Positions 1-3,933 of a stretch of 4,130 nt of DNA are shown piece after piece. Origin of the DNA: a virus (taxonomy: Duplodnaviria; Heunggongvirae; Uroviricota; Caudoviricetes); the IMG/VR virus record IMGVR_UViG_3300014705_000033. One strand, 5' to 3'. Each line of letters begins with the position of its first letter. The first letter of the stretch is position 1. A program made the position numbers and the translations under genes. The notes beneath the pieces are model-generated. The model was not told the DNA's origin, made no database searches, and was given only the letters and a program-made list of their open reading frames with translations.

Positions 1-1173
1 GCACTGGCTGCAACCTCCGGCGCAGCGCCCAGTGTCAGAAAGGTGGAACCCAGTGCCGCCGCTTTACGATAATCCAGACGGTCAGCCACACCGCCCAGAC
101 GTTGCATGACATCAATGATGTCCGCCCCTTTCGACATGGCGTTATCATCCAGATAGTTCAGCGCATCGCCGAGCTGTTCAATATTGCGGGTAGGTATTTT
201 GTAGAGCTGGGCGATTTTCCCCAGACTTTCTGACAGTTCATCCGCTGGCAGCTCAAAGGCTGTTGCCGCCTTTGCCGCCGTACTGGCGAAGTCCAGCAGG
301 TCACGTTTCTGGTCTTCCCAGCTGTCGTCAGGGTTTGCGACGTTCATACGCGCACCACCTTCAACCAGTGCAGCGAAGTCCACCGCACCGTTTTCCATCG
401 GCAACTGTTCGCTGGCNNNNNNNNNNCTTGATGGCATCCTGCATTTCATAAAAACGTGCAGTGCGGTTGCCATTATCGTCACGCAGACCATTGACCTGCT
501 TTGCCACACCTTTCATGGCATCTTCCATGCTGGTATAGCTTTTTACTGCCGCCATCACTGGTGTCCCCATTGCCAGCCCTGCAGCCGTGGTGGTGGCTCC
601 GGCTCCTGCAATACGATCACGCACCTCCAGCGAACGGGCATAACTGGCACGCGCCGCATTCATCCTGCGCTGAGCTTCCCCCAGTCGCTTCAGCCGCGCC
701 TCCTGTTTCGACAATTCCTGGTTATAACGCGATGTTTCACGGGCTAAACGGGCAGTTGCTCCCGCATCATCTTTCGCAGAAATTCCCGCCCGATACAGTT
801 CTGCACGCACAAGCGCCGTTTGCTTCTGCAAATATTTTTGTTGTTCTTCCAGGCGTTGGACTGCCAGCGTTTGCCGACCTAAAGCCACAAGGTGCCGTTG
901 TGATGGTTGTTCCATCGCTTCCAGCTCAGAACTAAGCAAATTTGCCTTCTGTCTGGCATAGTTCAGCCTGTCGCCTAACCTTTTGTTATCGGCCTGCAGC
1001 TTGCGAAATTTTTCCAGGCTGTTACCCGCCTGATTGAGTTGCTTTAATGCGTCACGGGAGTTTCTGATTGCGCCAGCCAGCTCTTTCGAACTGGCCTGTG
1101 CAGCACGGAATGGGCGGGTGAGTTTGTCAACCGCATTAAGAATGACCTGCAGGCGCAGGTTATTATCACTCAT
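1..1173 (-). CDS. T: Phage tail tape measure protein (P2 gpT-like), N-terminal part; C-terminus lies beyond the left edge of the window. Interrupted by the N-run at 417-426, with the reading frame changing across the gap.
   Basis: ATG at 1173-1171 opens MSDNNLRLQVILNAVDKLTRP..., followed by a long Q/R/E/L/A-rich segment with coiled-coil character typical of tape measure proteins. Left of the gap a different frame (codons from 416 downward) stays open to position 1 and translates to ...DALNYLDDNAMSKGADIIDVMQRLGGVADRLDYRKAAALGSTFLTLGAAPEVAAS, which I recognise as tape-measure core sequence. Gene order after E/E' matches P2 (FI-FII-E-E'-T). Confidence 0.88.
417..426. other. Assembly gap (10 N) inside the tape measure gene
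   Basis: Run of n characters. The coding frame to its right (codon boundary at 427) and to its left (codon start at 416) differ, so the N-run is a placeholder and not a length-preserving mask. Confidence 0.9.
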
Positions 1174-1602
1174 CGTTGGCCCCGCTTCTCTGAATCGCTT
1201 TATACCGCCATTCCAGCACTTCTGTCAGCGGCATAACGTCAGTAACGGATGGCGGCCAGTGAAAAATGGTGGCGATATCTGCCACCAGATCGTCAACCGT
1301 CAGGCTGTCGGTAAACCGGCAAGCACCGACTTCTTCAACAAAAAAGTGACAACCTCAACCGACATGGCAGTGAGATCTGCCGGGTCCATCTCTGCAATTT
1401 CCTGTGCGGTCAGTGCCGGGCTGGAGATGCGGGGGATCACGGTCATCATCGCGTTCACATCCATATCCATAATGGCCTGCAGGCGCGTACCGCGCAGCGC
1501 ACCGGACTGCGGTTTACGCAGCACAATTTCGGTGATTTCAGTTTTACCACGCTTGATGGGGGTATCCAGTTGAATGGTCTTTTCAGTCTGCTTATCGCTC
1601 AT
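1166..1602 (-). CDS. E': Tail assembly chaperone E+E' fusion made by a programmed -1 ribosomal frameshift (about 145 aa); the E' extension ends at TGA 1168-1166, overlapping the T start codon
   Basis: Slippery heptamer T_TTT_TTG sits in the E zero frame (ACT TTT TTG) at minus-strand 1345->1339. The -1 frame from 1339 is open for 57 codons (VEEVGACRFTDSLTVDDLVADIATIFHWPPSVTDVMPLTEVLEWRYKAIQRSGANDE*). Its stop overlaps the T ATG in the sequence ATGAGTGA. Confidence 0.8.
1300..1602 (-). CDS. E: Phage tail assembly chaperone, P2 gpE-like (zero-frame product, 100 aa)
   Basis: ORF MSDKQTEKTIQLDTPIKRGKTEITEIVLRKPQSGALRGTRLQ...LTAQEIAEMDPADL... resembles P2 gpE in size and pattern. It sits between the tube gene and the tape measure gene. 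A possible AGGA Shine-Dalgarno lies about 8 nt upstream of the ATG. Confidence 0.88.
   Translation of the reverse strand: MSDKQTEKTIQLDTPIKRGKTEITEIVLRKPQSGALRGTRLQAIMDMDVNAMMTVIPRISSPALTAQEIAEMDPADLTAMSVEVVTFLLKKSVLAGLPTA
1339..1345 (-). other. -1 programmed ribosomal frameshift slippery site (TTTTTTG), with a candidate downstream stimulatory hairpin at 1307-1330
   Basis: X_XXY_YYZ heptamer in the correct register of gene E. Eight nucleotides downstream on the mRNA is a perfect 6-bp inverted repeat GUCGGU...ACCGAC with a 12-nt loop (1330->1307). Confidence 0.75.
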
Positions 1603-2144
1603 TTTGCTGTCCTGTAAATTGGGTCCTGGGGCGGGGGTGCGCGCCCCCCCCANNNNNNNNNNAGGTCCACGCCATCAACGATTTCAATCATGTTGATCAC
1701 ATCAACCTCATAGAGCACCTCGCCGTTAATGGTCAGCTTCGCGTAGCTGTTGGTACTGGTCACTTTGGTGGTGTTGCTTTCGCCCGTCTTCCACTCGCCG
1801 GAATCCACTTCTTTGTGACGCCCACGCACGACAAGCTCCACGGCCTGCACTTCCCCGGTATCGTCACGCTGGATAGAGCCGGTAAAGCGCAGTTGGATGC
1901 CATCCACCGTGGATTTGCCCATCTGCTTAAACAGCAGCAGTTCAGTACCACCAATGGAAAATTCTGTGTCCAGAGCACTGTCATCAAGCCCCAGATCCAC
2001 ATCCACCGCCCCCGGCATTCCGCCGCCGCGATACTTCTCATATTTGCGGGTGAATTTCGGCAGCGTCAGCGACTCAACGATCCCCTGCCAGTTGTTCCCG
2101 TCGTTAAACAGGTTCAGGTGTTTTAATTTGCGTGGTAAAGCCAT
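1599..2144 (-). CDS. FII: Phage tail tube protein, P2 gpFII-like. The 3' end is uncertain because the reading frame runs into the N-run at 1653-1662; 1599 is only the ORF-track stop after the gap.
   Basis: ATG at 2144-2142 opens MALPRKLKHLNLFNDGNNWQGIVESLTLPKFTRK..., matching my recall of the P2 FII N-terminus (MALPRKLK.LNLFNDG). A Shine-Dalgarno AAGGGGA overlaps the FI stop, 9 nt from the ATG. About 160 codons are read before the gap, against about 172 aa expected for P2 FII. Confidence 0.85.
   Translation of the reverse strand: MALPRKLKHLNLFNDGNNWQGIVESLTLPKFTRKYEKYRGGGMPGAVDVDLGLDDSALDTEFSIGGTELLLFKQMGKSTVDGIQLRFTGSIQRDDTGEVQAVELVVRGRHKEVDSGEWKTGESNTTKVTSTNSYAKLTINGEVLYEVDVINMIEIVDGVDXXXXWGGRAPPPQDPIYRTAK
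1653..1662. other. Assembly gap (10 N) at the 3' end of FII, next to a G/C homopolymer tract
   Basis: Run of n characters immediately preceded on the plus strand by GGGGCGGGGGTGCGCGCCCCCCCC (1628-1651). Confidence 0.9.
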
Positions 2145-2153
2145 GTTATCCCC

Positions 2154-3323
2154 TTACGCGCTGACCTGGCTGGAGAAATTCACCAGGTACTGATCGGTGA
2201 TGCGCTGACGCAGCATCAGGTTTTCAAGTGGCGGCACTGGCGTGTAGTCGTAGTCGATGGTGAGCTTCCCGGCTTTCAGAGTATCTTTGTCGTTCACCGA
2301 CTCATCCAGCCAGCAATCACCACCAATGAGATAGCCCTGACTGACCAGGCTGCGCATTTTGGCGCGGATACCTTCGATAATGTCGCGGGCCAACGACGGG
2401 TTCAGCGGTTTGTCCACCGCCCACATATGCGCTTCTGCCATTGTGTCCATAAGTACCTGCGCCGTGCGGGTGTAGTTTTCGAAGGCAAAGAGCGGGTCAT
2501 CACTCAGGCAGCGGGAACCCCAGAAGCGGAAACCGTCTTTGCGGATAAGGGTGGTAACGTCGTTCTGGTTCAGCAGTCCCGCATCTGTTGCCGTGTCCTG
2601 CAGATCCCAGAACACATCAGCAGAAATTCCGGTGACACCGTTAACGCCCACGTTGGACAGGCTTTTGTGCCATCCGGTCTGCTCGTCAATTTTAGCGCGC
2701 AGACCAAGCGCACGGGCGGTGGCATAAGCCGTTGCTTCGGCATTCAGCACCGTGTCCCAGCCAGTAAAGTCGGGCCAGATCAGCATTCCTTCACGCTGAC
2801 TGAAGTTTTCACGGTAAGTGATCGCCTCCTGCACTGTCTTGCAGCCATACGCTGACAGGTAAGCAAACCCACGCAGGCTTTGCGCCACGCTCAGCAACTC
2901 AGTCGCAACGGCTTTGTTATCGTGGCCTGGCACGCCGAGAATGCGCGGTTTAACGCCGAGCTGTGACTGGGCAGATAACAGAGCTTTCATGCCTGTTTTT
3001 TTACCTTCATCAGTCACTGCGCCGATGATATTAGTTGTGGTTTCTTCTTCCGTTTCACCCTGCGGCACACGCACAACGGTCACGGGTTTTGCCTGATCAG
3101 CAATTGCATCCAGCGAACGAGCCAGTGTGCCGGACTCGCCCGCCTTACCGCTGGCGGTCAGCACATCGGTCAGCAGGACCGGCTTATTGAGCGGAAACAT
3201 GGACGCATCAGCATCATCGCCGGTGCAGACCATGCCCACGATAGCGGTGCTCACCGTGGTAATGGATCGGGTGCCATCGTTGACTTCAACAACGCGCACC
3301 CCGTGGTGGTAATCCTGGGCCAT
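2154..3323 (-). CDS. FI: Phage contractile tail sheath protein, P2 gpFI-like (about 389 aa)
   Basis: Translation from the internal ATG at 3323-3321 begins [54 protein letters not shown]... and ends ...[24 protein letters not shown]..., co-linear with my recall of P2 FI (MSDYHHGVQVLEINEGTR...). GGAGAG Shine-Dalgarno about 9 nt upstream. The ORF-track start at 3416 adds 31 non-conserved codons and runs over the promoter and terminator region. Confidence 0.93.
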
Positions 3324-3397: not shown

Positions 3398-3415
3398 TGT
3401 GTGGGGAATGACACA
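3398..3415 (-). promoter_or_regulatory. Candidate Ogr/Delta-type late-activator binding dyad (TGT-N12-ACA) of a P_F-like late promoter driving FI-FII-E-T
   Basis: TGTGTGGGGAATGACACA has the TGT-N12-ACA form, centred about 83 nt upstream of the FI ATG. A possible -10 TATTAA lies at minus-strand 3372->3367. The position between G and FI matches the P2 P_F promoter. Confidence 0.45.
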
Positions 3416-3426
3416 ATGGAAAGGAC

Positions 3427-3450
3427 AGAAAAATCCCCGCAGGTGCGGGG
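3427..3450 (-). terminator. Candidate rho-independent terminator downstream of gene G
   Basis: Minus-strand CCCCGCACCTGCGGGG (6-7 bp GC stem, short loop) followed directly by ATTTTTCT, starting 6 nt after the G stop codon. Confidence 0.5.
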
Positions 3451-3456
3451 ACGGGA

Positions 3457-3933
3457 TTAATCTTTGGGCGGCTCAGGCCAGTTAATATCAGGTGCCAGCG
3501 ATGTATCCACCCGCATCAGCAATACGCGGTATTTTCGCCAGGCATCATAGCGGCTCTTTTCTTCGTCTGTTGCCATATCCAGTTCAACAGCATCCTGCAG
3601 CGGAGATATCGCGGTACCTGCTTCGGATAACAACGTAGATCTCCGTAGCTCAGCATCAGCTATTAGATCTGCCGACTTTCGCGTTACGGCTGCATCTGTC
3701 ATAACCCAGGTATTGCCAGCTGCATCCCATGAATGGTATTTATCAGGGCGCGGTTGAGAAATGTTGTATTTATCGGCAACCAGATAAACCACCCGGTCAC
3801 TATTTATTGCATTAAAAAAACGGGCATATTGCTCATTATCTATCGCCTGAACATCTGAGGGTAAATCGTCGACTATTGCGTTTTCCTCATAATTATCATC
3901 GTAGAATGATTGGGTGCTAACTGAAAATCTCAT
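3457..3933 (-). CDS. G: Tail fibre assembly protein / chaperone (P2 gpG-like, Tfa family), 158 aa
   Basis: C-terminus ...[36 protein letters not shown] matches the conserved Tfa C-terminal motif as I recall it. It lies immediately upstream of FI, as gene G does in P2. GAGGG Shine-Dalgarno about 6 nt before the ATG at 3933. Confidence 0.82.

Follow-up and report, generated by a model that had tools for sequence, protein, structure and literature searches.

Does the tail operon studied here yield two proteins from gene E by a shift of the reading ribosome, as phage P2 does, and does the shift depend on an RNA structure downstream of the slippery site? In P2, a -1 shift at TTTTTTG gives rise from one start to the 91-aa protein E and the 142-aa protein E+E', with no hairpin (Lynch et al. 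2010, PMC3091744). The whole stretch of DNA that was analysed, here called the window, comprises 4,130 nucleotides.

Genetic Context of the Locus

The minus strand is the coding strand for all genes in the window. The following genes were recognized.

3933..3457, minus strand: tail-fibre assembly gene (Pfam Caudo_TAP)
3323..2154, minus strand: tail sheath gene FI (PF04984, PF17482, PF22671)
2144..~1657 (1664..2144 before the N-run), minus strand: tail tube gene FII (PF04985, E 1.8e-55)
1602..1300, minus strand: gene E, zero-frame tail assembly chaperone of 100 aa (open reading frame and PF10109 Phage_TAC_7)
1..1173 with the ATG at 1173..1171, minus strand: 5' part of the tape-measure gene T (TIGR01760 tape_meas_TP901)

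The order sheath, tube, E, E', tape measure is shared by the window and its annotated relatives. Gene T leaves the window at its edge, and its homologues in relatives carry a tape measure annotation. The nearest phage records were those of Klebsiella prophage-derived phages (99.6% identity), Klebsiella phage 4LV2017, and Escherichia phage Cartapus, the 4LV2017/Cartapus lineage belonging to Peduoviridae, Elveevirus. Judged from its sequence, the window comes from a P2-family prophage (Peduoviridae, Elveevirus-like) and covers part of its FI-FII-E-E'-T tail operon. The locus was present at an identity of at least 95% in ~1,000 of the 5,426 complete E. coli genomes and also occurred in many Klebsiella prophages.

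Two runs of 10 N, at 417-426 and 1654-1663, behaved like scaffold-type gaps in which length is not preserved, as seen by comparison with locus L080 (99.3% identical). Judged against L080, the first run stands for 3 nt (GCT) within T and the second for ~38 nt that include the FII stop. Because the N-runs fail to preserve length, two apparent open reading frames were rejected as artefacts: a 270-aa "T" ending at a stop at 361, which arises from run 417-426, and a 181-aa "FII" reading into E, whose true stop codon is hidden in run 1654-1663.

Several non-coding elements were noted alongside these genes. In the FII-E spacer of L002, L004-L014, L037, L080, and L140, a 7-bp GC hairpin, GGCGCGG-N4-CCGCGCC, is kept just upstream of E; its loop is variable in these close relatives, and it is not followed by a T-run. 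The hairpin in this spacer of P2 is a different one. The spacer of the window itself (1621-1653, minus strand) consists of a different G8/C-rich sequence adjoining the N-run; either sequence variation or an error of assembly could account for it. The FII-E hairpin may serve mRNA stability or attenuation where the abundant tube gene gives way to the E-T genes of low abundance. A hairpin resembling an intrinsic terminator, followed by a T-run, lies after the tail-fibre assembly gene (3433-3452, minus strand). Upstream of FI, at 3398-3415, there is a TGT-N12-ACA dyad, which we take to resemble the Ogr/Delta-dependent P2 late-promoter element.

Anatomy of the Frameshift Site

The site and the reading frame that it gives access to are located as follows.

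1345..1339, minus strand: slippery heptamer T_TTT_TTG, in register with the zero frame
1339..1166, minus strand: E' extension, 57 codons in the -1 frame plus TGA at 1168..1166 (Pfam PF06528 and open frame)

TTTTTTG occurs only once in the window. It begins at the third base of the codon ACT, and the reading ACT TTT TTG places it in the register X_XXY_YYZ, as had been claimed in a first-pass annotation made from the sequence. The zero frame of E stops at 1302..1300. Upstream of the slip site, the -1 frame is open for only 5 codons; the 57 codons from there to the TGA, and with them a fusion protein of 145 aa, had likewise been predicted and were confirmed. The fusion is described by join(1602..1339, 1339..1166), in which the G is read twice to give 88 + 57 = 145 aa. 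The octamer ATGAGTGA at 1173..1166 on the minus strand carries the TGA stop of E' as its last three bases, so that E' and T overlap by 8 nt and the E' stop lies 2 nt after the T ATG. The earlier description of an E' stop overlapping the T start therefore held for the overlap with T but needed correction in one respect: the TGA covers T codons 2-3 and not the ATG.

Because the bare heptamer occurs at chance level (1 found versus 1.01 expected in the window), the case for the site rests on register and homology. Taken together, the register, the position at the end of E, the open -1 frame, and the homology are far beyond chance.

Relationship to E and E+E' of Phage P2

The 145-aa fusion matched two protein families, one on each side of the junction. 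Residues 9-88 corresponded to PF10109 Phage_TAC_7 (E 1e-18, 67.5 bits, cut-off 25), the match ending exactly at the slip codon, and residues 107-143, within the -1 extension, corresponded to PF06528 Phage_P2_GpE (E 2.9e-18, 65.5 bits, cut-off 23). No NCBIfam family matched the fusion, and a sequence search of the PDB found no solved relative of it. Alignment with P2 E+E', which the first-pass annotation had suggested as a check, was gapless across the junction (49% identity over 139 aa, E 1e-49) and showed that the similarity continues through the -1 extension. Up to the slip codon, E was 44% identical to P2 E over 88 residues. The P2 record NC_001895 (P2p25/P2p26) lists a 91-aa E and a joined CDS for E+E' with a "site of -1 translational frameshift," and its note calls the fusion an "essential tail protein."

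The window and P2 have in common both protein families, the TTTTTTG heptamer, its register, and the aligned codon at which it stands. The heptamer context is GGT TTT TTG in P2 and ACT TTT TTG in the window, with identical register. In both, the -1 extension comprises 57 codons, E' and T overlap by 8 nt (ATGAGTGA in the window, ATGAGTAA in P2), and the gene order is FI-FII-E-E'-T, known in P2 as the FETUD tail operon. The two differ in the length of E, 100 aa in the window versus 91 aa in P2, because the zero frame stops 12 versus 6 codons after the slip; in the length of the fusion (145 versus 142 aa); and in lineage, the window belonging with Elveevirus (4LV2017/Cartapus) and P2 with Peduovirus. 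All four sequence-level traits of the P2-type E/E+E' site, comprising both Pfam families, the T6G register, and the placement between FII and T, were found in the window.

Conservation among Related Loci

Conservation was evaluated for 54 related loci, taken from contigs of one genome per species and sharing 33-99% identity, which span Enterobacterales, Pseudomonas, Burkholderia, Halomonas, and sphingomonads (Sphingomonadales). A T6N sequence was present at the homologous codon in 51 of the 54 loci, N being G in 38, T in 5, A in 4, and C in 4. The wobble T preceding TTT was retained whether the residue before it was G, T, N, S, A, or I. The -1 open reading frame spans 54-76 codons in 53/53 readable loci (L040 was excluded, since a contig end cuts it), and the zero frame closes 2-22 codons after the site. 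An E'-homologous extension was found in 51/54 loci.

Exceptions to the T6N rule were of two kinds. In L038, an alphaproteobacterial metagenome-assembled genome, T6G is replaced by A_AAT_TTC at 1752-1758, one codon upstream, and E' is kept. L029 (Zoogloea) and L034 (a Burkholderiales metagenome-assembled genome) have GTTCCTG and contain neither the heptamer nor a recognizable E' (around 1740-1770). A terminator-like hairpin was seen after E in both L029 and L034.

The proposal that the locus is the counterpart of P2 E/E' was thus borne out by both Pfam families, by the gapless P2 alignment, by the P2 record, and by the conservation of the locus. The feature is an already known P2-type programmed -1 frameshift in a common P2-family prophage.

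Evaluation of a Downstream Hairpin

The first-pass annotation had pointed to a hairpin as the possible stimulator of the shift.

1330..1307, minus strand: proposed 6-bp hairpin GTCGGT/ACCGAC with a 12-nt loop, 8 nt 3' of the heptamer

On this proposal, the -1 shift would be real but dependent on the hairpin as a stimulatory structure. The description of the element itself was accurate. The 6-bp stem is present, its 8-nt spacer falls within the canonical 5-9 nt (range from PMC5009743), 5/6 outer pairs appear in the ViennaRNA local MFE, and most sequences in the window's close clade retain the stem unbroken. The role assigned to it was not supported, however, as the local MFE of -13.5 kcal/mol corresponded to z = -0.68, 50 of 200 shuffles folded at least as well, and in a 106-nt context (z = -1.64) the region was paired differently.

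Comparative analysis pointed in the same direction. The single stem changes observed in 19 close-clade variants were wobble-preserving or pair-breaking, and none was compensatory (first stem base G to A in four, T to C in one). In a set of 29 sequences drawn from the two enteric clades with equal linker length, 66% of cells were paired, and the covariation of 0.150 was no better than that of controls slid by -3 (0.170) or +3 (0.167). Folding of 50 diverse loci did not reveal a common structure: the mean z was -0.55, 6 loci lay below -2, and the stem positions varied. The stem is broken in P2-clade relatives, and Lynch et al. (2010, PMC3091744) describe P2 and three Burkholderia cepacia complex phages as lacking a hairpin. 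The C-terminus of E and E' overlap by 12 codons, so that the hairpin stretch is dual-coding, and it is because of this dual coding that the region is conserved in close relatives.

On the basis of the shuffles, the substitutions in the 19 variants, the folding of the 50 loci, and the pair count in the 29 sequences, the hairpin was rejected as stimulator, and a shift that depends on it is quite improbable. The structure-stimulated type (dnaX/IS911/viral) is marked by a stable stem-loop or pseudoknot on the 3' side, at 5-9 nt from the heptamer, that is conserved or covaries among relatives; none was found here. When the two elements were followed across relatives, as the annotation had recommended, it was the heptamer that proved to be conserved and not the hairpin.

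Two other palindromes near the site were recorded. P2 (L001, 686-700), L028, L030, L031, L035, L049, and L059 contain a small hairpin, CGCCG-N4-CGGYG, at +2 to +15 after the heptamer; its distance of 2 nt from the heptamer falls short of that expected of a canonical stimulator, and its sequence is part of the dual-coding stretch. In the window, 52 nt beyond the slip site and within the coding sequence of E', a 7-bp hairpin with a T-run (TGGTGGC...GCCACCA, then TTTTT) at 1267-1287 (minus strand) resembles a terminator. It is probably fortuitous, because by eye the homologous stretch of P2 shows no such palindrome.

Shine-Dalgarno-like Element Upstream of the Heptamer

An element that could influence the shift from the 5' side was also considered.

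1356..1352, minus strand: Shine-Dalgarno-like GAGGT, 6 nt 5' of the heptamer

A sequence of the form R-A-G-G-T-G precedes the heptamer in many loci, at a distance of 5-6 nt, and is absent in many non-enteric relatives. In 31/56 loci, the window and P2 among them, it is the strongest anti-Shine-Dalgarno match anywhere in E, and the E/K codon overlapping it has G as its last base in 36/42 loci versus 18.4 expected from local codon usage, both counts being drawn from loci that are not phylogenetically independent. Shine-Dalgarno spacing for stimulation of a -1 shift is 9-14 nt upstream (PMC5009743). An element of this dnaX type, 9-14 nt 5' of the shift site, was not found, GAGGT being only 6 nt away. 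That R-A-G-G-T-G pairs with the 16S rRNA of elongating ribosomes and so tunes the P2-type frameshift appears unlikely; the pattern could equally have arisen from a conserved E/K-V-V peptide together with shared ancestry. If such pairing did take place, it could help to explain how P2-type frameshifting reaches an efficiency 2-3 times that of lambda G-T (Atkins et al. 2016, PMC5009743) in the absence of a 3' structure.

Possible Separate Translation of E'

The annotation of this locus in databases suggests another way in which E' could be produced. In RefSeq, Cartapus, and CP019275, E is accompanied by a stand-alone CDS of 120 nt (39 aa), called "GpE family phage tail protein," which starts from GTG 1285. 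It had been expected that a gene caller would report E alone and miss the fusion. The fusion is indeed missed, but E' is not: it is drawn as this separate 39-aa "GpE family" CDS. According to such an annotation, E' would be made mainly as a separate 39-aa protein from GTG 1285 and the fusion would be unneeded. Apart from the three database entries, this reading is favoured by an ATG or GTG at about residue 19 of E' (window 1283-1285, minus strand) in most relatives and by the fact that the Pfam GpE model begins at the position of GTG 1285.

Several observations are at variance with it. L024, L033, L055, and L058 do not have a start codon there, and E' is still conserved in them. Upstream of the annotated start, the linker motif V-[DE]-D-L of the -1 frame is conserved, and this is also the case in the P2 clade, where the motif lies past the E stop and only the -1 frame is coding. 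The T6N heptamer and the wobble T are conserved as well, and by eye no obvious Shine-Dalgarno sequence was present just upstream of GTG 1285. For P2, E' has been described as devoid of a ribosome binding site and as overlapping T (Lee et al. 2014, PMC3931495), and it is the fusion that the P2 record lists as an essential tail protein. Because the four loci lacking the start codon keep E' and the upstream -1-frame linker is conserved, independent initiation is not the general route, and its serving as the main source of E' is very improbable. Some independent translation of E' from the conserved ATG/GTG at about residue 19 is a potential addition to the fusion.

For E. coli RNA polymerase to slip efficiently, runs of ~8-9 or more are required, longer than the T6 present here. 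Access to the -1 frame by transcriptional slippage, in which RNA polymerase would add one U at T6 and ribosomes would not slip, is extremely unlikely, for although the site is homopolymeric (T7 in some relatives) and such slippage serves comparable two-product genes in other systems (PMC5009743), the A_AAT_TTC of L038 is a valid tandem-slip heptamer and not a homopolymer, and the site is called a translational frameshift in the literature and in the P2 record (NC_001895, PMC3091744, PMC3931495).

Proposed Mechanism and Comparison with Lambda and dnaX

From the sequence comparisons as a whole, a P2-type -1 frameshift at T_TTT_TTG very probably yields both E and E+E' in this prophage. Most ribosomes translating E would stop at 1302..1300 and release the 100-aa chaperone E. 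A minority would slip back by one base with TTT TTG of T_TTT_TTG (1345..1339) in the P and A sites, read 57 codons in the -1 frame, and release the 145-aa E+E', ending 2 nt after the T ATG. The heptamer alone would most likely be sufficient for the slip, with no downstream RNA structure taking part. A literature search did not find a specific measured efficiency of U_UUU_UUG in E. coli. A fixed slip frequency, which we infer for this prophage, would set the ratio of E to E+E' for tail assembly. By analogy with lambda gpG/gpGT, the E part shared by both proteins may bind the tape-measure protein, and the E' part may recruit the tube protein.

The lambda heptamer is G_GGA_AAG and thus unlike TTTTTTG. 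Lambda moreover is a siphovirus, whereas the phage described here is a myovirus. The two systems resemble each other in that the site lies between the major tail (tube) gene and the tape-measure gene, in that a short chaperone is accompanied at a fixed ratio by a form extended through a -1 frameshift, and in that neither needs an elaborate stimulator (PMC5009743); the lambda and P2-type systems are reported to share no detectable sequence similarity (PMC3931495). E. coli dnaX (A_AAA_AAG) shares with the site the tandem -1 slip on X_XXY_YYZ and an upstream Shine-Dalgarno-like element. It differs in that its Shine-Dalgarno sequence lies within 9-14 nt and a strong 3' stem-loop is required (PMC5009743), whereas in the window GAGGT is 6 nt upstream and no 3' structure is supported.

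Significance

The locus adds one more member to a textbook case of recoding and opens no new question. It confirms the conservation of T6N across P2-like prophages of the Proteobacteria, unaccompanied by any conserved RNA structure. In practice, it matters for annotation: ~1,000 E. coli genomes carry E and a "GpE family" CDS as split genes, and the E+E' fusion is left undrawn.
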